Of a stretch of 56,374 bases of DNA, positions 3,198 through 56,354 are shown one piece after another. Position numbers and translations under genes: made by a program. How positions within the stretch are numbered: the first letter of the stretch is position 1; every line of letters starts with the position of its first letter. Under the pieces are notes generated by a model, which worked only from the letters and a program-made list of their open reading frames with translations, searched no databases and was not told where the DNA came from. The DNA comes from a virus. The stretch spans positions 1-56,374 of IMG/VR virus record IMGVR_UViG_3300045988_058758. One strand, 5' to 3'.

Positions 3198-3518
3198 ATG
3201 TTTTTTGCAATCAATGGTACAATCTGGCACATACAATATAAAAATTCAAATTCGGGCGAATTAAAGCGGTCAGACAACACAATTAGCTTAGGTGTAACTG
3301 ACAGAAACACGCATACGATATATCTGTCAGACAAACTACAGGGATTTATGCAACGCAAAGTGCTAATACACGAAGTATGCCACACTGTCTGTATGTCGTA
3401 TGATATTTATTTGCCGATTGAGACAGAAGAAATATTGTGCGATTTTGTAGCAACTTATGGAGATGAAATATTTGATATTGTTGATATGGTTTTAGGGGCA
3501 GTTAGGAGAGCGGGATAA
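3198..3518 (+). CDS. Short ImmA/IrrE-like Zn metallopeptidase (HExxH)
   Basis: Motif VLIHEVCH preceded by GVTD...TIYL, typical of COG2856-type peptidases; RBS AAGGGGG. Confidence 0.55.
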   Translation: MFFAINGTIWHIQYKNSNSGELKRSDNTISLGVTDRNTHTIYLSDKLQGFMQRKVLIHEVCHTVCMSYDIYLPIETEEILCDFVATYGDEIFDIVDMVLGAVRRAG

Positions 3519-4494: not shown

Positions 4495-4501
4495 TTTAAA
4501 C

Positions 4502-4552
4502 CCCACGGAATATAGGTAAAATTTTTCTTTACCCCCGTGGGTTGACTTTTTG
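4502..4552. terminator. Two-tier hairpin terminator after the Cas5-like gene
   Basis: CCCACGG/CCGTGGG outer stem and GGTAAA/TTTACC inner stem, followed by TTGACTTTTTG. Confidence 0.55.
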
Positions 4553-4559
4553 TATTCAC

Positions 4560-4770
4560 AATTTCAATTTTAAAAAATCTCAAAATTTGGTGCAGATTTC
4601 GTTCAAATCCTACTAAAAAAAATTGGAAAAATTTCTCCACAAATTTTATTGCTAAAAATTTTGATACCCCCGTCATATGCAATTTTGGAATCCAAAAATC
4701 GGTTACGCAGAATTTCAATTTTTGCTCCCGATTTTGTTCAGATTTGCCCTGAAAAATTGATGAAAAACTT
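4560..4770. repeat. Two degenerate copies of a 60-80-nt unit in A/T-tract-rich ORF-free DNA
   Basis: AATTTCAATTTT at 4560 and 4711; GATTTCGTTCAAAT vs GATTTTGTTCAGAT; CAAAATTTGGTGCAG vs CAAAAATCGGTTACGCAG. Confidence 0.6.
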
Positions 4771-5100
4771 TAATAGATTAAAGTGCATTATATAAACTTG
4801 ACCGGCTGTGATTCGTGCTTGTTTTGACTTTGTGGCTTTGTGATTTGCCCTGTACGGCGGTTTTATTGTGTCGGTGTAGACTTCTAAGCCTACAGAACAA
4901 ACAGCCTTAAAACGCTTTTAAATGTATTGCGCAAAATGGATATAATACACCTGTTGGGTTGTTGGAGCTGTCGCCAGTTTTGAAGAATCCACCAGAACAC
5001 GCGCCGCCCCAACTGGGTACACTTGTACACCTAAAAGGTGTAAAAAGCCTTATATATAAGCATAGCATTATTATATTGATTTTTCAAGGTACACAATAAA

Positions 5101-5118
5101 AGCATATAAATATATGCT
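5101..5118. terminator. Palindromic hairpin AGCATATA-N-TATATGCT (U-tract on the minus strand)
   Basis: Perfect palindrome; minus strand continues TTTATT. Confidence 0.4.
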
Positions 5119-5120
5119 AA

Positions 5121-5160
5121 TGCTTGCGGCTGGAATCGAACCAGTCAAACCACAGCAAGC
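5121..5160 (-). ncRNA. tRNA-like acceptor/T-arm minihelix no. 1 (no D or anticodon arm)
   Basis: Minus strand: GCTTGCT-GTGGTTTG-ACTGG-TTCGATT-CCAGC-CGCAAGC-A. Confidence 0.5.
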
Positions 5161-5187
5161 CAAAAAGGGCGCAGATTGTACGCCCTT
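5161..5187 (-). terminator. Rho-independent terminator of the leftward cassette
   Basis: AAGGGCG/CGCCCTT stem followed by T5 on the minus strand; overlaps the stop codon. Confidence 0.7.
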
Positions 5188-5488
5188 ATTCAATATATTT
5201 TTTGTAATGTTCTGGAAATTTGAAAATCCTTTCTCTTCCTATGTTCTTTGGTTTAGATGAAAATCTTTCTAATCTTGTTGAGCTGCTATTGACATCTAAA
5301 TCTAAATCATTGTAACACTGTTCGCACTCTAAACGCACTATCCAATTAAATGAGCCGCTATCATATTGATATAACATAGCTTTAGCTTTTGGATAGGCTT
5401 TTAAATAATTTTCAATAGATTGAAATTGTAAAGCAGTTTCTTCAAGTTTCGAATATCTGTCAATTTTTAGCCAATGTACATATTTCAC
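5186..5488 (-). CDS. Hypothetical protein (100 aa), third gene of the ArdA cassette
   Basis: GTG start with RBS GGAGG 7 nt upstream. Confidence 0.65.
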   Translation of the reverse strand: MKYVHWLKIDRYSKLEETALQFQSIENYLKAYPKAKAMLYQYDSGSFNWIVRLECEQCYNDLDLDVNSSSTRLERFSSKPKNIGRERIFKFPEHYKKYIE

Positions 5489-5530
5489 GGTACAACCTCC
5501 ATATATTTATTATTTGCCATTTGGCAAAAA

Positions 5531-5571
5531 TCCGTCGCAGGGATTCGAACCCTGCCGACCGCCTGAACGGA
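5531..5571 (-). ncRNA. tRNA-like acceptor/T-arm minihelix no. 2
   Basis: Minus strand: TCCGTTC-AGGCGGTCGG-CAGGG-TTCGAAT-CCCTG-CGACGGA followed by TTTTT. Confidence 0.55.
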
Positions 5572-5583
5572 TGACGAAAAGAA

Positions 5584-5949
5584 TTAATATTTTTCTGGGC
5601 TTGTTACTTTGTCAAAACCAAAATAAAAATATGCATTGCTTGCCCTGTTTGCCTTGTCCGCTGTAGCCTTGTCAATTTCGCAATATCCTATTACCTCGTG
5701 ATTCCTCCATATAGCATACTTTTTCAATGGTTTCGTGTCGTCAACTATAAGAAAATGCCTATTTTCAAAAAATAATGTTGTACCATATCCAGGCAAGAAA
5801 GCACTTTTGATTGTTTTGTCTATTATTTCCTTTTTGGTGTAATCAACGATATAATTTGTTTTGTAATCGTTCGGTATTCTTTCCCATTCTTCCCTTGTTA
5901 AAATGTGCAAAACGCTTTTATTTTCGTCTGATAACTGTATTTTTTTCAT
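5584..5949 (-). CDS. Hypothetical protein (121 aa), second gene of the ArdA cassette
   Basis: ATG preceded by GAAAGGCGG; the upstream part of the tracked ORF overlaps minihelix no. 3. Confidence 0.65.
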   Translation of the reverse strand: MKKIQLSDENKSVLHILTREEWERIPNDYKTNYIVDYTKKEIIDKTIKSAFLPGYGTTLFFENRHFLIVDDTKPLKKYAIWRNHEVIGYCEIDKATADKANRASNAYFYFGFDKVTSPEKY

Positions 5950-5991
5950 ATAAATACCGCCTTTCAATTTTATTATCCTCTTACGAGGTAA

Positions 5992-6033
5992 AAGCAAGCC
6001 GGGGAATCGAACCCCGGGAACGCCGACCTTGCC
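5992..6033 (-). ncRNA. tRNA-like acceptor/T-arm minihelix no. 3
   Basis: Minus strand: GGCAAGG-TCGGCGTTC-CCGGGG-TTCGATT-CCCCGG-CTTGCTT; begins at the ArdA stop codon. Confidence 0.5.
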
Positions 6034-6545
6034 TAGAATATCTCTATAGCATTGTTATCATCTGTAAAAATGTAAGTTCCTTCGATGCCTAAATCCCTGC
6101 CGAATGATTCATAATCAAAATATCTTGCTACATTGTCAGGTACATTATTCAAATATCCACATTCCTCTACAACCTGATATGCTATGTCGGTCATATCGTC
6201 ACAATCACTATATATTCTATAATCGCCACTGTTTACCTTGTCTATAGCTTCATTCAGTGTATAACCTAACTCCGACATTAAAACTTTCACAACTTCACTT
6301 TCTTCTTCACCTAACTCTTCAATCCGTTCTGCTATCTCATTTAATGTATCTAGGCTTTCATACTCTCCGACTTCGTAAAAGTCGCACTCATAATCAGTTA
6401 TAAAATACTCTTCATATTCTTCATTGATTCCAATACGCTCAAATACTTTCTGAAGTTCTTCCTGTGATACTGGCAGCTCTACCCATTCGCCTATCAACTC
6501 GCCTTCATTATACTTGCCTAAGTTTGTTAAATAAATATTCATCAT
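6033..6545 (-). CDS. ardA: Antirestriction protein ArdA (DNA-mimic inhibitor of type I R-M)
   Basis: Near full-length resemblance to Tn916 Orf18/ArdA (IY..NLGKYNEGEL.G.W..LP...EE....IG.N.EYEEY.I.DYE; SDCDDM; FGRDL). Confidence 0.85.
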   Translation of the reverse strand: MMNIYLTNLGKYNEGELIGEWVELPVSQEELQKVFERIGINEEYEEYFITDYECDFYEVGEYESLDTLNEIAERIEELGEEESEVVKVLMSELGYTLNEAIDKVNSGDYRIYSDCDDMTDIAYQVVEECGYLNNVPDNVARYFDYESFGRDLGIEGTYIFTDDNNAIEIF

Positions 6546-6654: not shown

Positions 6655-6683
6655 ATTATAAAGCTATCTTTATATAATTACAA
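6655..6683 (-). promoter_or_regulatory. Leftward promoter TTGTAA-17-TATAAT for the ArdA cassette, with an operator in the spacer
   Basis: Read on the minus strand; perfect -10 box. Confidence 0.5.
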
Positions 6684-7407: not shown

Positions 7408-7710
7408 ATGAAAGCATATACGATTATTGACAAGAACGAAAGGAACGCACAAAGCGAATGCGTTTTGTACACATTCAAGGAATTGAAAGAACTTTTTAAG
7501 CCAGAGGAGGAAGAGACGGTCACTAATTGGGAAGAGTGGGAAAAGCTTCAAGATGTAGATGACTTGCAAACGTACTTGATAAAGTCATATGACGGGATGG
7601 CGTGCCCATATAGTTTTGAAGCTGTGGAAGTTGAAAGTCTGGAACAGCTCCGGCGAATGAATGAATATTTATATTCTGATGGGTTAAAAGAAGAACTGTT
7701 AAACAATTAA
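7408..7710 (+). CDS. Acidic hypothetical protein
   Basis: RBS AAAGGTGG (same as the previous gene). Confidence 0.6.
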   Translation: MKAYTIIDKNERNAQSECVLYTFKELKELFKPEEEETVTNWEEWEKLQDVDDLQTYLIKSYDGMACPYSFEAVEVESLEQLRRMNEYLYSDGLKEELLNN

Positions 7711-7723
7711 TATTAATATTTAG

Positions 7724-9492: not shown

Positions 9493-9866
9493 TGAGCGAT
9501 ATTTCATATCCATTACCTTGTATTAATTGTGCAAGTAGACTTCAGTCAGAATACGCATGTAATAATTGCACACATAACGGTGCTAAGAGCGATGATAAGT
9601 TTGATAATTTTATTCCACTCAAAGATGTTGCACCTAGCGTCAATGGAAAGCCGGTAAATGACAATGTTAATCATCCAAGCCATTATGAGACTGGCAGCTT
9701 TGAATGTATAGATGTTATGTTGGAAACACAGGGCAAGGAAGCCGTTAAGAACTTTTGCTTATGTAATGCCTTTAAGTACATTTACAGACATAATAACAAG
9801 AATGGCTTAGAAGATATTAAAAAAGCTAAGTGGTACATTGACAAGTACATAGAATTGTCAGAATAG
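9492..9866 (+). CDS. DUF3310-family protein
   Basis: VNHPSHY ... ECIDV ... NAFKYIYRHNNKNGLEDIKKAKWYI. Confidence 0.7.
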   Translation: MSDISYPLPCINCASRLQSEYACNNCTHNGAKSDDKFDNFIPLKDVAPSVNGKPVNDNVNHPSHYETGSFECIDVMLETQGKEAVKNFCLCNAFKYIYRHNNKNGLEDIKKAKWYIDKYIELSE

Positions 9867-9951
9867 CCGTGTCGGTCAATGAAAGTATAATGACTACAAA
9901 GGATAGTACACTGCGGTTTGTGGCGAATATATACCAAGAATAGCCACTTAA

Positions 9952-10023
9952 TGCACCATAGCCAAGCGGTAAGGCACAGAGCTTTGACCTCTGTATGCGT
10001 CGGTTCGAATCCGACTGGTGTAG
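9952..10023 (+). tRNA. tRNA-Gln (anticodon TTG)
   Basis: Hand-folded cloverleaf: acceptor TGCACCA/TGGTGTA (U1-A72), anticodon loop CT-TTG-AC, T arm GTCGG-TTCGAAT-CCGAC. Confidence 0.8.
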
Positions 10024-10258
10024 TTCGTCTTACTTTTATCGTAGACTACCATGTTTTGCATTTTAAGGTAGTCCTCCTTTCATGTACCTCTTTGGATTTT
10101 GTTCAGTTAAAAGCGGTGCAAGACCGCTTGAGAGGGCTTGGCGTGTATATACACAGTCATGTGAAAACCAACTTATCAAGAAGCACTCCTTACTAAAATA
10201 CCCCTAATATTTTATTGTTTCTGTTCTTGTTTCTTGATAGCCGTTACAGGCGGTATTT

Positions 10259-10341
10259 GCCGATATGGGATAAAGGTATTCCAGTAGCTTGCTAAGCTAT
10301 CCAACAGAAATGTTGTTCGTGTTCGATTCACGATGTCGGCG
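10259..10341 (+). tRNA. tRNA-Ser (anticodon GCT), long variable arm
   Basis: Acceptor GCCGATA/TGTCGGC; anticodon loop TT-GCT-AA; variable arm CAACA-GAA-ATGTTG; T arm TCGTG-TTCGATT-CACGA. Confidence 0.7.
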
Positions 10342-10456
10342 CTAACTTACGACAGGGGTGAACCTTGCCGTAAGCGGTAGAAAGTCCGCATGAAATTGTA
10401 CAAAGTAGTGGCAAAAGCAATTTCAAATATGGCAGTTCCACTACACTGTCATATTT

Positions 10457-10538
10457 GCCGTATGTCCGGGTGGTGAGGGAGCGGTCTTGAAAATCGTTGG
10501 CTGTAAAAGGCTTGCAGGTTCGAATCCTGTGTACGGCG
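10457..10538 (+). tRNA. tRNA-Ser (anticodon TGA), long variable arm
   Basis: Acceptor GCCGTAT/GTACGGC; CT-TGA-AA loop aligns with E. coli tRNA-Ser(UGA); T arm GCAGG-TTCGAAT-CCTGT. Confidence 0.65.
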
Positions 10539-10648
10539 CTTATCTTTGGATAACTTTTAATTACCAGAACTGCAAATATGGGTTATAAGGTTGTCTGTAT
10601 GGATAGTAGTTGTATTATCGGAAACAGAAAACTCTTTGCAAAATAGAA

Positions 10649-10711
10649 TTTGCAGATTTGAAATGCATTGGCATGGTTTGGTCTGACAGAGTTCGACTCT
10701 CTGTGCAACTA
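10649..10711 (+). other. Degenerate tRNA-like fragment (Gln-type anticodon arm plus T arm, no D arm)
   Basis: TGCAG-ATTTGAA-ATGCA and CAGAG-TTCGACT-CTCTG; no acceptable cloverleaf. Confidence 0.3.
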
Positions 10712-10811
10712 TTTACAGCAAACTAGGTTAGCTACCGAAAAGCAGACCACGACTGCCTGTTTGTTGTTATATCTAAAATCGTGGAAATTATCATTCGTGG
10801 AGGTAAATAAA

Positions 10812-11048
10812 ATGGCAAAGTTGATTAAGCATCGTTCAATCGGAAAAATAAGAATGGAACTTGCGGATTATGTGCTGAATTGCACAGATGATGAATTGTA
10901 CGAGCTTTGCGGTGCTGTTTCAGAGCTTGAAGGTGTAACATCTTGGTCTTGTGATGAATGCCAAAAACGATTTAAACCAGATTGTAGCTTTGATAGCGAT
11001 GATTCAAGATGCAAGAAGCATTTCTTTGAGATGAATAAGCCGGAATAA
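10812..11048 (+). CDS. Small Cys-containing hypothetical protein
   Basis: RBS GGAGG; the upstream part of the tracked ORF spans the tRNA-like DNA. Confidence 0.6.
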   Translation: MAKLIKHRSIGKIRMELADYVLNCTDDELYELCGAVSELEGVTSWSCDECQKRFKPDCSFDSDDSRCKKHFFEMNKPE

Positions 11049-13967: not shown

Positions 13968-14174
13968 ATGAAAATATCAGAAATGAATAACTGCATTGAA
14001 GAAATGCGTAAATGCTACAAGTTTAATGATGATAAAACAGAAATAAGACTTGGAGATATGGCAAGTGGAAGCAACAGATATGTAACTGTCGGTACAAAAG
14101 ACGAAAACGGGACACAGATTGAAATGACAAGAATAGCAGATAAATTAGAAGAAGCAGACTATTGTTTGCGATGA
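13968..14174 (+). CDS. Hypothetical protein
   Basis: RBS AGGAAG. Confidence 0.5.
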   Translation: MKISEMNNCIEEMRKCYKFNDDKTEIRLGDMASGSNRYVTVGTKDENGTQIEMTRIADKLEEADYCLR

Positions 14175-15035: not shown

Positions 15036-16769
15036 ATGGCTAGTCAGAGCCTTATTTCCACAGTTAATGGATATGAAAATTACATAGAGAAAAATGGAAT
15101 AGATGAACAGGTAATTAATGCCTATGTAGACGCTTGCAACGTGGCTATAAACGGCGAGAAAGATATTGAGTATGGACTACAACTCACTAAGAAGGCAAAA
15201 GACATTATAGAGCGTTTCTGCAAGGATAAGACAGGCGGTACAATTTGGGATTTAGAAAAGTATGCTTTTGCAAATAAAGTAGAGTATGAATTGATTAATT
15301 GGTTTTACGATATTTTACTGATTGAAGCACAAAACAAGGTTGTTGACAGTTTTTTTAGATACATAGAAAAGAAACGTGAACCTAAAGAAAGATTCTATAT
15401 GCCGAGAAGAAAACAGTTTATCAAAATAGGCTTAATAGAAGCATTACAAGGCATGATTGATGATAAATATGATATTTTATGTATTTCTCTCCCACCCGGA
15501 ACAGGGAAAACCACAATCGAAAAGTTTTTTCATTCTGCGGTTATAGGTTGGTACTCAAACGGATATAACCTCTTTTATTCACACAGCAGAGACATTACAC
15601 AAATGTATTATGATGGAGTATACGATATTGTCACAAACGCTAACGAGTATACATGGGGAGAAGTGTTCCCTGGACTTGAAGTAACAAGTACAAATGCAAA
15701 ACTTGAACAGTTTAACGTAGGAAAATATAAGCCGTTTCAATCTGTACAATGTACATCCGTCGGCAGTAAAAATGCTGGTAAAGTCAGAGCTAATAAATTT
15801 CTGCTAGTTGATGATATGATAGGCGGCATTGAAGAAGCACTAAACCCAACCTATCTTGATAAATTGTGGGATAAATATGCAGTAGATGCACGACAAAGAA
15901 AGATACCGGACGAGGATGGAAACCCATGTAAAGAAATACATATTGCTACAAGGTGGAGCGTTAGAGACGTAATAGGACGTATTATACAAGCTTATGAGGG
16001 AAACAAGCGAGTTAAAGTAATATCCGTGCCTGATGTAGACCCAGTAACAGGAGAAAGTAATTTTGACTTTGAATTTGGTGGCTATACAGTAAAGGATTTT
16101 GAAGATATTCAGCTACTTATGGATGAAATCTCATATCGCTGCCTGTATAAACAAGACCCTATAGAACGTGAGGGCTTATTATTCCCGGACGATAAAATCC
16201 GCAGATACCTTAATCTACCACACGGAGAACCAGAAATTATCACAGCTCAATGCGATACAAAAGGAAAAGGTACAGATTATTTTGTACTGCCTGTATTGCA
16301 GAAGTACGGCGAAGATTATTACTGCGTTGATTGCGTATGTGACAACACAGCAGATTATGAGCAACAGTATAGAAATGCATCTGCAGTAATTGTGAATAAT
16401 AAGGTTCAAGAGTGCGAATTTGAGCGTAATGCCGGTGGAGATAGGGTCGCAATGGAAGTTAATAAGCGTGTGGAGAGTGTGGGATGGATATGCAATATTA
16501 CAGATACACCGACTGAAACAAACAAAGAAGCAAGAATATTTCAGTGTTCCAACTGGATTCTACAGCACATTATCTTTAAAGACGTATCGCTTTACAAACC
16601 TAATGAATCATACGGAATAATGATGTCGCTTTTAAAACAATATTCAGTATCGGGTAAGAAACAGTTAGATGATGTTCCAGATGTTTTCTCAAACTTTGCA
16701 CTAAGAATGACACAAGGTAATAGAACAGCTAAAGTTGAAGCTGCTATAAATCCATTTAGGAGGTATTAA
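15036..16769 (+). CDS. terL: Terminase large subunit
   Basis: Walker A SLPPGTGKTT; Walker B LLVDDM; size and position ahead of the portal gene; start could instead be GTG at 15018. Confidence 0.85.
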   Translation: MASQSLISTVNGYENYIEKNGIDEQVINAYVDACNVAINGEKDIEYGLQLTKKAKDIIERFCKDKTGGTIWDLEKYAFANKVEYELINWFYDILLIEAQNKVVDSFFRYIEKKREPKERFYMPRRKQFIKIGLIEALQGMIDDKYDILCISLPPGTGKTTIEKFFHSAVIGWYSNGYNLFYSHSRDITQMYYDGVYDIVTNANEYTWGEVFPGLEVTSTNAKLEQFNVGKYKPFQSVQCTSVGSKNAGKVRANKFLLVDDMIGGIEEALNPTYLDKLWDKYAVDARQRKIPDEDGNPCKEIHIATRWSVRDVIGRIIQAYEGNKRVKVISVPDVDPVTGESNFDFEFGGYTVKDFEDIQLLMDEISYRCLYKQDPIEREGLLFPDDKIRRYLNLPHGEPEIITAQCDTKGKGTDYFVLPVLQKYGEDYYCVDCVCDNTADYEQQYRNASAVIVNNKVQECEFERNAGGDRVAMEVNKRVESVGWICNITDTPTETNKEARIFQCSNWILQHIIFKDVSLYKPNESYGIMMSLLKQYSVSGKKQLDDVPDVFSNFALRMTQGNRTAKVEAAINPFRRY

Positions 16770-16775
16770 TCTATT

Positions 16776-17198
16776 ATGACAACTAAGGACTATCTGAATC
16801 AGATAAGTTATTACAACAAGATAATTGATAATAAATTGATAGAAATAACACAGTATAAAGAATTATCATACAGCATATCAGCGGTTGTTAATGAAGAAAG
16901 AGTTATGTCATCATCAGATCCAGACAAAACAGGCTGCGGATATGTCAGACTTGAACAAATGGAAGAAAACCTTGATAAGCTTATAGATAAATACATTGAT
17001 GTAAAGAACAAAATAATAGAGCAGATAGAGCAGATAAACAACGAAGATTATTACACAGTATTGTTTCTAAGATATGTCAGAAAGTTTACATTTGAAAAAA
17101 TTGCAAATGAAACAGACTGGTGCTGGCGGCAAGTACACAGAATACATGCTAAAGCCCTGCAAGCCTTTGAAGATAAATATGGAAATGAATATTTATAA
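16776..17198 (+). CDS. ArpU/RinA-like regulator (sigma-70 region-4-type HTH)
   Basis: YTVLFLRYVRKFTFEKIANETDWCWRQVHRIHAKALQAF. Confidence 0.55.
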   Translation: MTTKDYLNQISYYNKIIDNKLIEITQYKELSYSISAVVNEERVMSSSDPDKTGCGYVRLEQMEENLDKLIDKYIDVKNKIIEQIEQINNEDYYTVLFLRYVRKFTFEKIANETDWCWRQVHRIHAKALQAFEDKYGNEYL

Positions 17199-17291
17199 AA
17201 GATGTCATAGAATGTCATATTGCACTAATGATATACTGTATCTGTAAGAAGTTACAAAGATGTTTTTCATAAACAAAACATTCCTTATCGA

Positions 17292-17325
17292 AAGCACCGT
17301 TACTTAATTGTGATGGTGCTTTTTG
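17292..17325 (+). terminator. Rho-independent terminator
   Basis: AAGCACC/GGTGCTT stem followed by T5. Confidence 0.6.
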
Positions 17326-17345
17326 TTATGCAACGAGGTAAAAAT

Positions 17346-17555
17346 ATGAATTTTTATATGAATAAAGATAAATCAATTATGTGCCCGAACTGCCATAAGT
17401 TTTTAACTAAGGCAGACAGCAAAGACCCAAGAACACATAAACTGGCGTGCAAGCATTGCCACAAATGGATATGGTATGTGCCTAACGATGATGATAATTT
17501 TCAAATTAAAGAAATACCGGACAGCAGAAGTTCAAGTGGTATGACATTTTATTAG
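17346..17555 (+). CDS. Zn-ribbon protein
   Basis: CPNC ... CKHC; RBS GAGG. Confidence 0.55.
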   Translation: MNFYMNKDKSIMCPNCHKFLTKADSKDPRTHKLACKHCHKWIWYVPNDDDNFQIKEIPDSRSSSGMTFY

Positions 17556-17564
17556 GAGCAAGAT

Positions 17565-19001
17565 ATGAACACAATGTATTTTCAAGACCTTGTTAGAGGT
17601 TGTTATGGTAGAAAAATTGCATATACGAATGTAGATACAATAACTGCTAACAATGTTGTTAAGGTTATTGGAAGTACTATAGGTGTATTTAATTGGAATA
17701 AGCCAGTTATTAAGTATCTGTGGCATTACTACAAGGGCGACCAACCGATATTGTATAGACATAAGCTGACTAATGAAGATATTACAAACAAGATTGTTGA
17801 GAATCACGCATATGAGATTGTTCAGTTTAAGGTAGGACAGACGTATGGCGAGCCAATTCAGTTTATTAGCCGCAAAGATGATGAAGCTATCAATAAGGCG
17901 GTTGATATACTCAATGATTTTATGGCGGATGCCAATAAACAAGAAAAAGATATTAAGGCTGGAGAATGGCAATCGGCAACAGGAACATCCTTTAAGGCGG
18001 TTCAACCTAAAAATGGTGATGTGCCATTTAGAATTGTAGCACCTACGCCAATGAACACTTACGTTGTTTACAATGAAAGCACAGAAGAACCTATGCTTGT
18101 TGTGCAAGAACTTAAAGACGAGGATGGAAACTGGTACAAGATGGCATTTTCCGACACTATGTCTTTTAGAATTGTTGACAGCAAAGTAGTTGAAGCAAAA
18201 CTACATACATATGGTGAAATCCCTATTGTAGAGTTCCCTAATAACCACGAAAGAATATCTGATATTGAGCTTGTTATAGGCATGTTGGATGCTATTAATA
18301 ACATGCAGTCTAACAGAATGGATAGCATACAGCAGTTTGTTGAATATTGGGTTAAGTTTGTAAATTGCGAAGTTGATGAAAAAACATTTGCAAAAATGAA
18401 AATGAACCACGCTCTTACAGTTAAGTCCATCAATAAGGATAATAAGTCGGATGTCGAAATTATGACACAAGAGCTTAATCAGACACAATGTCAAGTTGCT
18501 AAGGAAGATTTGTGGGATAACACATTATCTATATTGGCTATACCAAACAAACAGGGCAACACAGGCGGAGATACGCAAGGAGCGGTCGAGTTAAGAAACG
18601 GATGGGATTTCTCTAAGACAAGAGCAAAACTGAAAGACCCTATTGTTAAATCGTGCGAAAAGCGGTTAGCGGTAGTGATTCTTAATATTCTAAGACTTGC
18701 AGGAGAAGACTTAAAACTATCGGTTAGAGATTTTGATGTACAGATAAATCACAGTCCACAAGACAATATGTACACCAAGGCGCAGACGTTGCTTTTACTT
18801 TTACAAGCTGGCATACATCCACTTATAGCAATTAAGACAGTTGGTTTATGGGGAGATGCAGAAAAGACATTCCTTTTATCAAAATCATATCTTGATAATA
18901 TATATAAGACTATTGATGATGTGGAAGAACAAGAAAAGAAAGCACAAGAGATAGTTGATCAACTTAATAATAATCAGCAAAATAAGGCAGTTATCGAATA
19001 A
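17565..19001 (+). CDS. Portal protein (SPP1 gp6-like)
   Basis: 478 aa; located after terL and before the scaffold gene; RBS AGGAG. Confidence 0.8.
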   Translation: MNTMYFQDLVRGCYGRKIAYTNVDTITANNVVKVIGSTIGVFNWNKPVIKYLWHYYKGDQPILYRHKLTNEDITNKIVENHAYEIVQFKVGQTYGEPIQFISRKDDEAINKAVDILNDFMADANKQEKDIKAGEWQSATGTSFKAVQPKNGDVPFRIVAPTPMNTYVVYNESTEEPMLVVQELKDEDGNWYKMAFSDTMSFRIVDSKVVEAKLHTYGEIPIVEFPNNHERISDIELVIGMLDAINNMQSNRMDSIQQFVEYWVKFVNCEVDEKTFAKMKMNHALTVKSINKDNKSDVEIMTQELNQTQCQVAKEDLWDNTLSILAIPNKQGNTGGDTQGAVELRNGWDFSKTRAKLKDPIVKSCEKRLAVVILNILRLAGEDLKLSVRDFDVQINHSPQDNMYTKAQTLLLLLQAGIHPLIAIKTVGLWGDAEKTFLLSKSYLDNIYKTIDDVEEQEKKAQEIVDQLNNNQQNKAVIE

Positions 19002-54992: not shown

Positions 54993-56354
54993 ATGGAATG
55001 TGTTGCTTATATGAGAGTATCCACTGAAAAACAGGCTGTTGAGGGCAACGGACTTGATAGCCAGAAAAGGGATATTGAAAACTATTGCAGAAAAAATGAG
55101 CTTGTAATAACAGATTGGTACATTGATGATGGTTATACAGGTACGAATATGGATAGACCAGAACTTCAAAGGCTTGTGAATGACTGCGGTCGAAAGAGAA
55201 TAGGCTGCGTTGTAGCATTTAAACTTGACCGATTATCAAGAAATATGATTGATGGGATATATCTTATTGAGAAAGTATTTCAAAAATACGATGTTGTGTT
55301 TAAATGTGTTCACGATAGCGTGAATTATGACAGCCCAATGGAGCAGGCATACACACAGATGATGGCGGTATTCGCACAGCTTGATAAAAACACAATGATG
55401 TTGCGTATGCGTGGTGGAATGCTTGAACGTGTCAAGCAAGGCTACTGGTTCGGTGGCGGCAATTTGCCTTATTGTTATTCTTACAGCAAAGACCAAGGTA
55501 TATTAATACCTATTCCAGAACATGCGGAACAGGCGAGAAAAGGTCTTGAATTGTTCATATCCGGCTATTCAGATGCGAAAATTAAAGAAATTTGTGGCTT
55601 TAGATCAGAATTAGTTACTAGAAGTATCTTGACCAGCGTTGTTAATATTGGGATGATACCTTACAAAGGTAAAACATATCAAGGCAAACATGAAGCTGTT
55701 TTTGATAAAGATAGGTTTGAACTTGGATTAGAACTAAGAAAGACAAGGTGTTCGGCAAAAACTTACTGCATAACCGAACCTAATTTATTGACCGGATTAT
55801 GTTATTGTGGCATTTGTGGCTGCAAAATGCGTTATCAAAAATGGGGCAGTAAAAAGCATAAGATTTATTGCTGTTCAAGAAATAAATCACTTTCATATCT
55901 GCCTAATTATAATGCAAGCTGTAATAATTCGCTTGAATGGGCGGATGAGATAGAGAAACAGGTAGAAGAAGAAATACTTAAAATATCGCTTGATTTATCA
56001 TCTTACAAGCCGAAAGAAAAGGCGACAAAACTTGAAATTATGCAATCACAGCTTGAAAAGGAACAGATTAAGCTAAAAAGATTATATAATCTGTATGCTG
56101 ACGGAAATGATACAGTCTTAGAAATGATTAAGGAGCTCGAATCACAGATTAAAGAAATGAAATCAAACATTGCCGCCGAAAGCAAAAACGAAATCAATAC
56201 ACAGAAAAAGGAGTTTGTTTACGAGAACATAAAAAAACTTGCCGACATTTGGGATAAGGTCGACAAGAAACAAAAAAACATGATACTTAAGACTATAATA
56301 GATAGGATTGTTATAGTCAATGGAAATATTGAAATACAGTTAAAGAATTTTTAG
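54993..56354 (+). CDS. int: Large serine recombinase (integrase)
   Basis: YMRVSTEKQ catalytic Ser region; FKLDRLSRN; recombinase domain; Zn ribbon CGICGCKM...YCC; C-terminal coiled coil. Confidence 0.9.
   Translation: MECVAYMRVSTEKQAVEGNGLDSQKRDIENYCRKNELVITDWYIDDGYTGTNMDRPELQRLVNDCGRKRIGCVVAFKLDRLSRNMIDGIYLIEKVFQKYDVVFKCVHDSVNYDSPMEQAYTQMMAVFAQLDKNTMMLRMRGGMLERVKQGYWFGGGNLPYCYSYSKDQGILIPIPEHAEQARKGLELFISGYSDAKIKEICGFRSELVTRSILTSVVNIGMIPYKGKTYQGKHEAVFDKDRFELGLELRKTRCSAKTYCITEPNLLTGLCYCGICGCKMRYQKWGSKKHKIYCCSRNKSLSYLPNYNASCNNSLEWADEIEKQVEEEILKISLDLSSYKPKEKATKLEIMQSQLEKEQIKLKRLYNLYADGNDTVLEMIKELESQIKEMKSNIAAESKNEINTQKKEFVYENIKKLADIWDKVDKKQKNMILKTIIDRIVIVNGNIEIQLKNF

Follow-up and report, generated by a model that had tools for sequence, protein, structure and literature searches.

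tRNA-like elements in a leftward phage operon

The IMG/VR virus record IMGVR_UViG_3300045988_058758 was analysed over positions 1 to 56,374, a stretch of 56,374 nucleotides (nt) that is referred to here as the window. It carries a leftward operon of three genes, and an initial annotation, made from the letters alone, had placed a short element resembling the acceptor stem and T arm of a tRNA after each of them. On the minus strand the operon is preceded by a promoter-like site (6655..6683; -35 TTGTAA, 17-nt spacer, -10 TATAAT; 10 of 12 consensus matches). The first cassette slot holds an ArdA anti-restriction gene (6033..6545, minus strand; 170 amino acids (aa)), an identity borne out by the match to PF07275 (E = 3.5e-42). 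The second and third cassettes are the open reading frames (ORFs) ORF2 (5584..5949, minus strand; 121 aa from the ATG at 5949) and ORF3 (5186..5488, minus strand; 100 aa, GTG start). Neither gave a family match in Pfam or PHROGs, and the family search assigned no function to them.

All three elements (E1, E2 and E3) were present on the minus strand at the annotated places, with sequences exactly as quoted. E1 (5993..6033, minus strand) begins, as described, at the ArdA stop codon TAG (6035-6033), the G of which is its first base. The 5' strand GGCAAG (6033-6028) is followed by G7, the linker UCGGCGUUC, the T stem CCGGGG/CCCCGG with the loop UUCGAUU (6011-6005), and the 3' strand CUUGCU (5998-5993). 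In its trailer (5977..5992, minus strand), the unpaired position N73, here U, is followed by UUA and the hairpin CCUC-GUAA-GAGG (5988-5977), which stands before an A-rich spacer and the ribosome-binding site of ORF2.

E2 (5571-5531, or 5531..5578 with an alternative 5' strand; minus strand) likewise starts where it had been placed, 12 nt past the ORF2 stop codon TAA (5586-5584). Two alternative 5' strands, UUCGUC (5578-5573) and UCCGUU (5571-5566), lie before a linker containing GGCGG, the T stem GCAGGG/CCCUGC with the loop UUCGAAU (5549-5543), and the 3' strand GACGGA (5536-5531). Its trailer (5514..5530, minus strand) consists of U73, a U-run and the hairpin UUGCC-AAAU-GGCAA (5527-5514), located before the ORF3 ribosome-binding site. 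E3 (5122..5160, minus strand), the last of the array, is indeed flanked by hairpins. Upstream, directly 3' of ORF3, a terminator consensus scan detected a terminator-like hairpin with a U-run (5165..5187, minus strand), and a hairpin with a U-run (5118-5093) follows downstream. The element is built from the 5' strand GCUUGC (5160-5155), the linker UGUGGUUU, the T stem GACUGG/CCAGCC with one A.C mismatch, the loop UUCGAUU (5140-5134) and the 3' strand GCAAGC (5127-5122), and its trailer (5093..5121, minus strand) from A73, UU, the hairpin AGCAUAU-AUUU-AUAUGCU (5118-5101) and then UUUUAUUG.

With a length of 39-41 nt, the elements leave no room for a D arm or an anticodon arm, and ARAGORN and Rfam call only the real tRNA genes of the window, three in number (9952-10539).

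A shared and covarying fold in related phages

Relatives were collected as more than 240 stretches from IMG/VR contigs of ~55-60 kb, fetched with ORF2, ORF3 and the element cores (individual stretches carry numbers such as L003), and T arms lying outside predicted tRNAs were searched for in them. Elements are carried by more than 200 related gut-phage contigs. The E1 family is kept in more than 120 viral contigs and the E3 family is found in 106. At least 12 stem-sequence types share one architecture, in which a 6-bp acceptor-like stem, a G/U-rich linker with GG, a 6-bp T stem and the loop motif GGTTCGAWTCC are followed by N73-UUA, a small hairpin and a ribosome-binding site. The acceptor-like pairs of the relatives include AGCAAG/CUUGCU, GGCAAG/CUUGCC, UCCGUU/GACGGA, GCUUGC/GCAAGC, GCUAAU/AUUAGC, UUCGCGU/GCGCGGA, AAGUGAC/GUCACUU, GCAACC/GGUUGU and GUUGCUAU/AUAGCAAU.

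For a comparison of the stems, 59 non-redundant elements were aligned without gaps, the linkers being padded with N. Paired cells amounted to 91.9% against 61.8% in shuffles, a percentage that is inflated by the 5'-strand register having been picked by pairing; the diversity of the compensating stems is left uninflated by this choice. The covariation score was 0.816 against 0.216 in shuffles and was reached by none of 500. Both sides change in 10 of the 12 base pairs of the two stems; covariation in the acceptor-like stem was what the initial annotation had proposed to look for. RNAalifold placed a 6-bp acceptor-like stem on a 6-bp T stem, resulting in a 12-bp stack of the same length as the acceptor/T-arm helix of tRNA, and position 7:66 was mispaired in 41 of the 59 elements. 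The annotated architecture of an acceptor-like strand pairing combined with a T arm is thereby retained, with stems of 6 and 6 bp rather than 7 and 5 bp. G52-C62 and G53-C61 are invariant among the 59 elements; G53, C61 and most of the loop are fixed by the collecting pattern, whereas G52-C62 is not.

The linker sequences are also biased. GG is present in 42 of the 48 distinct linkers (26.9 expected), most commonly in the contexts UGGU and UGGC, and some linkers fold a three-pair mini (D-like) arm with a UGGU or UUGGU loop. In tRNA, G18-G19 of the D loop dock on the T loop and form the elbow, and the linker GG is plausibly, by analogy, a stand-in for these two bases.

A few relatives carry variants in which the two-stem architecture and the trailer hairpin are combined with loops that lack the T-loop consensus (L019, 2926-2965; L003 and L004, ~3375-3425). 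These loops read ACCGAUG, UCCAACG and UUCAACG, and a U-run follows each of them. The two-stem architecture can thus persist without a tRNA-like loop. Within the window, the stretch around the E1 3' strand at 5999-5993 (GGCUUGCU) recurs identically around the E3 5' strand at 5160-5154, and the E1 5' strand (GCAAG) matches the E3 3' strand, so that the first and last elements of the array use one stem with exchanged strands. In L003, L019, L031 and others, some of the genes before E1 finish in ...AGCAAGCAAAUAA about 30 nt ahead of it, and these gene ends supply, within the coding sequence, a further 5' strand (AGCAAGC) of perfect complementarity beside the usual one. The two alternative 5' strands, seen in E1 of the relatives and in E2 of the window, may reflect alternative pairing or be the trace of a duplication.

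Comparison with chance and with known RNA families

The motif GGTTCGAWTCC occurs five times in the 56-kb window, in the three elements and in two real tRNAs, against 0.01 times in shuffles. A covariance model was built from the alignment of the relatives and run over the whole window without filters. Its top three matches were E1 (43.1 bits, E = 1.5e-8), E3 (32.7 bits, E = 8e-6) and E2 (27.7 bits, E = 1.6e-4), scores that are partly a matter of construction because the seed holds sequences identical or near-identical to the three. For the same reason, the informative outcome is that nothing else in the window scores, apart from a weak fourth copy (10661..10711, plus strand; 19.5 bits, E = 0.023); the next match had E = 0.29. 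Both the motif count and the selectivity of the model agree with the original claim that the elements are unlikely to have arisen by chance. The fourth copy closes the tRNA cluster and directly precedes an int-alpA RNA. Its T arm is ACAGAG-UUCGACU-CUCUGU, and its acceptor-like stem measures 4 bp in the window and 6 bp (AGCGGU/GCCGCU) in relatives.

When compared with Rfam, the elements matched no family at its gathering score, and at E <= 10 nothing relevant was obtained. The tRNA model (RF00005) gave no match to them even at E <= 10, and the only match from the tRNA clan at this level was that of the tmRNA model, on the T arm only. The mascRNA-menRNA model (RF01684) was the sole Rfam model aligning across whole elements on the coding strand (17.7 bits for E2, 16.7 bits for E1), and since these scores are far under the gathering score of 42.5 the elements are not members of this family. 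A match to RT-18 on the opposite strand (29 bits against 41.3) and matches to plastid UTR families were set aside as chance or T-arm matches, and the Rfam scan found no type II hammerhead (RF02276) in the window. The elements share with tRNA the T arm (GGTTCRANYCC, G53-C61, 7-nt loop) and the acceptor stem stacked on it to form a 12-bp helix. They were not classed as tRNAs, as they form no cloverleaf, lack D and anticodon arms and are 39-41 nt long against about 70-90 nt. As to termination, the consensus scan flagged the E1 T arm (plus tail), and E2 is followed by UUUUU. Only UU was found after E3 and after the element designated E5, and the consensus trailer reads N-U-U-A, followed by a further hairpin.

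Orientation, position and trailers

In 28 of 30 acceptor types the more stable fold is that of the sense strand, with a mean advantage of 2.4 kcal/mol over the antisense strand. In 220 sense-strand contexts, an ORF ends just upstream in 171 and a Shine-Dalgarno sequence with an ORF follows in 165; the same count on the antisense strand gave 43 and 9. Elements and genes thus share one orientation, and the fold belongs to the coding strand specifically. In 93 of 194 contexts, the last base of the upstream stop codon is at +1, -1 or -2 from the first acceptor base, and from the element down to the next start codon the median distance is 45 nt.

The trailers are conserved in their own right. Among 142 distinct trailers, position 74 is U in 123 and C in only 15; a second U stands at position 75 in 110, and the next base is usually A. 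In 83 of the 142 (12.4 in shuffles), a hairpin of 4 bp or more opens 3-6 nt past the acceptor, with GUAA, GAAA and GCAA tetraloops among its loops. When genes reassort, the trailer hairpin moves with the downstream gene. We are highly confident that this conserved fold of the sense strand is genuine and has a function.

Hammerhead ribozymes at equivalent junctions

In the nearest deposited relative, Dulem virus 39 (PP511791, stretch L254; terminase 78% identical), hammerheads stand between the genes of the leftward operon, one above the Rfam gathering score and one by pattern only. Their junctions correspond to the minihelix junctions of the window (the record was not scanned for minihelices). 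Matches to the type II hammerhead model RF02276 of 54-62 bits, against a gathering score of 37, were obtained in Dulem virus 39 (7654-7721, minus strand; 9863-9927, plus strand) and in L004 (2288-2357), L009 (2343-2412), L012 (2384-2451), L014 (2375-2444) and L017 (2855-2922); the pattern-only sequence of Dulem virus 39 lies at ~8199-8140 (minus strand). The hammerheads above the gathering score share their operons with minihelices and start at the stop codon that closes the ORF before them.

A pattern scan detected hammerhead-like sequences in 106 of the 262 stretches. Out of 135 pattern matches, 101 lay within 3 kb of a minihelix of the same orientation and 2 near one of the opposite orientation (median distance 598 nt), and 90 hammerheads had their start at the upstream stop codon (offset +1 or 0). 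The two kinds of element alternate in the arrays, in the order ORF-hammerhead-ORF-minihelix-ORF-minihelix, and in L017 a hammerhead takes the place of the 5' part of E2. Three gene families were found upstream of either kind and 13 of 82 proteins downstream of either. Hammerheads and minihelices are therefore interchangeable beside the same genes. Hammerheads have previously been described flanking single prophage genes including ardA, with the suggestion that they cut long phage transcripts into gene-length mRNAs, while their role in bacteria was described as unclear (Perreault et al. 2011, PMC3088659).

Dulem virus 39 also carries a RAGATH-27 RNA beside its tRNA cluster (14033-14116; 77.2 bits, gathering score 76.1) and, just before the terminase, a gene annotated as the tRNA-splicing ligase RtcB (16460-17665). 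A coding sequence annotated as integrase is located upstream of its leftward operon, at a distance comparable to that of the large serine recombinase in the window.

Relation to tRNA genes and reassortment of cassettes

It had been considered initially that the elements could be scars of cassette acquisition at tRNA genes. The 24-nt 3' half of E1 gave six matches in 185,579 species genomes, none of which is a tRNA gene, and hence E1, the only element compared with these genomes, is not an att scar. All six matches are post-ORF elements of the same kind in contigs of Lachnospiraceae, from which we infer that the host lineage is Lachnospiraceae; Clostridium sp. CAG:510, Roseburia and UMGS894 relatives are among the genomes matched. 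In the phage collection, the only annotated feature beneath an element match was a tRNA-Phe gene, and the matches were part-length. Two sequences in the relatives (L099 ~1342 and L141 ~825, both minus strand) combine an acceptor stem of 7-8 bp with D and T arms but lack an anticodon arm. ARAGORN did not call either of them, and they may be intermediates between tRNAs and minihelices.

The genes around the elements differ strongly between relatives. The 5' untranslated region (UTR) down to 6546 is kept, even with a different first gene, and homology blocks at 6650-6542 are retained while the ArdA ORF is swapped out; unrelated small genes occupy this slot in most relatives. ORF2 and E2 are both missing from L023, L028 and L031. 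About 39 families of small genes adjoin elements in the relatives. The ten commonest upstream families gave no significant Pfam match, and ArdA is the only neighbour with a known anti-defence role. Homology between relatives breaks at the elements, with some breakpoints in 5' UTRs too, and E1 alone links 24 upstream and 43 downstream flank clusters in 92 combinations. As the element cores are conserved between phages, the elements are mosaic joints where gene cassettes reassort. Chimeras joined inside GGTTCGAWTCC were observed in L029 (2915-2965; E1 5' half with E2 3' half) and L017 (3320-3375; E3 5' half with E1 3' half), and are recombination scars since their acceptor pairing is broken. Chimeric elements number ~3 in 600, with broken stems. 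The sole recombinase found among the window ORFs scanned is a large serine recombinase (Resolvase and Zn_ribbon_recom domains) at the window end (54993-56354, plus strand), and no tyrosine recombinase or integrase was found among them. Because the chimeras are rare and broken, breakpoints fall in 5' UTRs as well and only a serine recombinase was found, the role as cassette joints is probably a by-product and not the purpose of the elements. This role, the downstream hairpin module and the link to hammerheads go beyond what the initial annotation had expected.

Putative processing of the operon mRNA and alternative explanations

We consider it moderately likely that the minihelices are mimics of the tRNA top half, directing RNase P and/or RNase Z cuts of the polycistronic mRNA. 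A processing signal is the best supported of the roles first proposed; the conserved, covarying and strand-specific fold, the position at stop codons, the trailer and the interchange with hammerheads argue indirectly for it, while the cleavage, the acting enzyme, the order of the cuts and the fate of the products are what we infer from them. The 12-bp coaxial helix, capped by a canonical T loop and provided with the GG linker, would present the shape read by host tRNA-maturation enzymes. RNase P would cut at the 5' edge of the minihelix and RNase Z after the unpaired N73, and these cuts would separate the cistrons, giving an intercistronic punctuation carried out by host enzymes. The downstream mRNA would be left starting 2-4 nt ahead of the small protective hairpin, and a ~45-nt minihelix would be set free, which may receive CCA. 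In Firmicute mRNA, a hairpin near the 5' end protects from 5'-end-dependent decay. The minihelix would in this way perform, through host enzymes, the same job as the self-cleavage of type II hammerheads at equivalent junctions.

The enzymes concerned have suitable properties in bacteria. RNase Z of Bacillus subtilis cuts CCA-less precursors after the discriminator (PMC7479834, PMC1874595), it is suppressed by a C directly after the discriminator, and its contacts are with the T arm and acceptor stem only (PMC7479834). Among the substrates of bacterial RNase P are operon mRNAs as well as regulatory RNAs of phages (PMC4919922). In the tRNA genes of the phage itself CCA is not encoded, and these genes therefore already depend on RNase Z.

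Several points weigh against such processing. Long 5' leaders inhibit B. subtilis RNase Z (PMC1874595), which makes a model with RNase Z only awkward. In about a quarter of the contexts, E1 of the window among them, stop codon and acceptor overlap by one base (last of the codon, first of the acceptor), so that a canonical RNase P cut would deprive the upstream mRNA of its stop codon and leave it no protective 3' hairpin. E3 lies past a terminator-like hairpin and would accordingly be transcribed only by read-through, and E2, being followed by five U's, may act mainly as a terminator. The E2 variants in L003 and L004 retain the stems and lose the T-loop consensus. Within families, wobble pairs and A.C mismatches are modestly skewed (13 against 6), and with the register set on Watson-Crick pairs alone the comparison was swamped by chance 4-of-6 matches. 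RNAfold z-scores of single window copies are weak (-1.1 to -1.5), and the acceptor-like pairing of each element taken singly is modestly unlikely (p = 0.03-0.06 over 26 registers). The case consequently rests on the relatives, where the percentage of paired cells carries the inflation mentioned above.

Some of these points would suit an element that is never cut, namely an mRNA structure serving as stabiliser, exonuclease roadblock, weak terminator or attenuator, or modulator of translational coupling at the stop codon, in which the tRNA likeness would merely yield a compact and stable fold. The overlap with the stop codon fits an element without a cut at its 5' edge, the terminator-like flag on the E1 T arm and tail and the five U's after E2 fit a terminator, and the E2 variants and the L019 element keep the architecture without the T-loop consensus. 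We nevertheless regard an uncut element as unlikely, because it leaves the near-invariant GGTTCGAWTCC loop, G52-C62, G53-C61, the 12-bp helix, the GG linker and the N73-UUA trailer unexplained across unrelated stems, as well as the interchange with self-cleaving ribozymes; E3 and E5, moreover, have no usable U-tract for a terminator. It would be somewhat more surprising if the excised minihelix were itself the product, a small, possibly CCA-tailed RNA of the tRNA top half that acts as decoy or titrant of host factors working on tRNA acceptor ends or elbows, such as tRNA-targeting defence toxins and nucleotidyltransferases, with mRNA processing being secondary. The full mimicry of acceptor, T arm and elbow with a GG linker, the location in an early accessory operon, here one with ArdA, and the annotated RtcB ligase of a related phage are in line with a decoy. 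The lack of an anticodon arm means that anticodon nucleases would not be decoyed, however, and the wide variation of acceptor sequences among types speaks against mimicry of one particular tRNA. Hammerheads, which can replace the minihelices, release no such RNA, the ten commonest of the ~39 neighbour families showed no significant match in Pfam, and only for ArdA is an anti-defence role known. A decoy can coexist with punctuation.

The breakpoints at the elements, the many flank combinations around E1 and the L029 and L017 chimeras joined in the shared loop motif could be taken to indicate sites acting at the DNA level, either attC-like or similar to the cores of tyrosine-recombinase sites (crossover in the 7-nt loop), or homology linkers for cassette swapping. 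As in integrons, there is one imperfect, strand-specific hairpin per array ORF, and cassettes reassort between genomes. R and L boxes and the GTTRRRY core are missing from the phage elements, though, and an integron-type tyrosine integrase from the window ORFs scanned. Hybrid sites are rare, defective and accident-like, 5' UTRs hold breakpoints as well, and the fold is strand-specific with many G-U pairs and an orientation that follows transcription. The T-loop consensus, the GNRA-type trailer hairpins and the hammerhead partners are features that point to RNA. Integron-like recombination sites were demoted on the rare broken chimeras, the 5' UTR breakpoints, the co-oriented strand-specific fold and the presence of only a serine recombinase, and we find any such DNA-level function improbable. 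Least credible, to a degree that we would hardly expect it, is that the elements are remnants of tRNA genes (att-site duplications or decayed phage tRNAs) without present function. The T-arm consensus and CCA-less trailers do resemble the phage's own tRNAs, and the L099 and L141 sequences suggest descent from tRNAs. Yet the compensating 5' strand is conserved and covarying, the E1 3' half, the one compared with the 185,579 species genomes, matches no tRNA gene there, and the elements are kept in hundreds of phages at precise gene boundaries.

Taking the processing by RNase P and/or RNase Z together with the genomic context, a wider reading can be formulated, for and against which we are evenly divided. 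Accessory and partly anti-defence operons in a large group of gut phages of Lachnospiraceae would be built from swappable single-gene cassettes, split either by hammerheads or by anticodon-less ~45-nt tRNA mimics that borrow host RNase P and RNase Z, as the bacterial-virus equivalent of mitochondrial tRNA punctuation. The excised minihelices, possibly CCA-tailed, could moreover act in trans on tRNA-directed host factors.

Comparison with known processing signals

In mitochondrial tRNA punctuation and in bacterial and phage tRNA-mRNA co-transcripts, RNase P and RNase Z separate the flanking RNAs by cutting out a tRNA-shaped unit. The punctuating tRNAs in these systems are complete, decoding tRNAs, whereas the phage elements cannot decode because they have no anticodon arm. 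Closer in kind are the t-elements of plant mitochondria, which were found by the motif GGTTCRANYCC, are cut by RNase P and RNase Z and define mRNA ends (Forner et al. 2007, PMC1920247), and which gain non-templated C or CA after excision (PMC1920247). The window elements have the same structural hallmarks, with the T-arm consensus outside a canonical tRNA and an acceptor-like stem at an mRNA boundary. Cuts by RNase P and RNase Z were proposed and partly shown for the t-elements, while processing of the phage elements is predicted here, and there is no sequence homology between the two. The t-elements are non-canonical cloverleafs that occur singly in organelle genomes (PMC1920247). The phage elements differ from them as 39-48-nt two-stem minihelices, in which only a linker stands where the D and anticodon arms would be. 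Beginning at the stop codon, they possess the N73-UUA and hairpin trailer, occur serially in one operon and alternate with hammerheads.

The mascRNA and menRNA of the MALAT1 and MEN-beta transcripts (RF01684) are likewise mimics of acceptor and T arm within a long transcript that are cut by RNase P and RNase Z (PMC4919922). They are eukaryotic and nuclear, the Rfam model (56 positions) has two further segments between the acceptor and T stems, and there is one per transcript, whereas the phage elements form a series between ORFs. Prophage hammerheads (RF02276, PMC3088659) occupy the same niche between small accessory prophage genes, including ardA, and in this phage family they share the arrays, the strand and the stop-codon start with the minihelices. 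The difference is that hammerheads cut themselves, whereas the minihelices, lacking a ribozyme core, would rely on enzymes of the host.

The functional class of tRNA-like processing signals is thus already known from organelles and MALAT1. The minimal architecture, the fixed trailer module, the serial occurrence in phage operons and the interchange with hammerhead ribozymes set the phage elements apart; no account of such elements in phages or bacteria was found in the literature searched (open-access papers and preprints), and Rfam has no model for the phage minihelices. If the processing takes place, tRNA-shaped punctuation of mRNA would not be limited to organelles and a few eukaryotic long non-coding RNAs and would be routine in abundant gut phages. 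Bacterial hammerheads would also gain a concrete function, one that is directly testable because a ribozyme and an RNase P/Z substrate stand in for each other at shared gene junctions. For splitting polycistronic RNAs in Firmicutes, a small natural part (~45 nt, with a 12-nt hairpin added) would then be available, similar to engineered tRNA-spacer arrays. The elements would also mark the exact borders of a hypervariable cassette array, which is a useful place to look for new anti-defence genes since ArdA is one of its occupants.

Other features of the window

Downstream of E3, ~550 nt of the minus strand (4500-5090) contain no convincing ORF. At its start stands a promoter-like site of the extended -10 type (-35 at 5087, end of the -10 at 5059); the stretch holds a G+C-rich segment at ~5010-4960 and is kept in many relatives. 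It may be a non-coding RNA. The int-alpA RNA (Rfam RF02996; 40.6 bits against 35.8) is located at 10716-10780 on the plus strand, directly after the tRNA cluster and the fourth minihelix, and sits upstream of a small ORF (~10813-11048).

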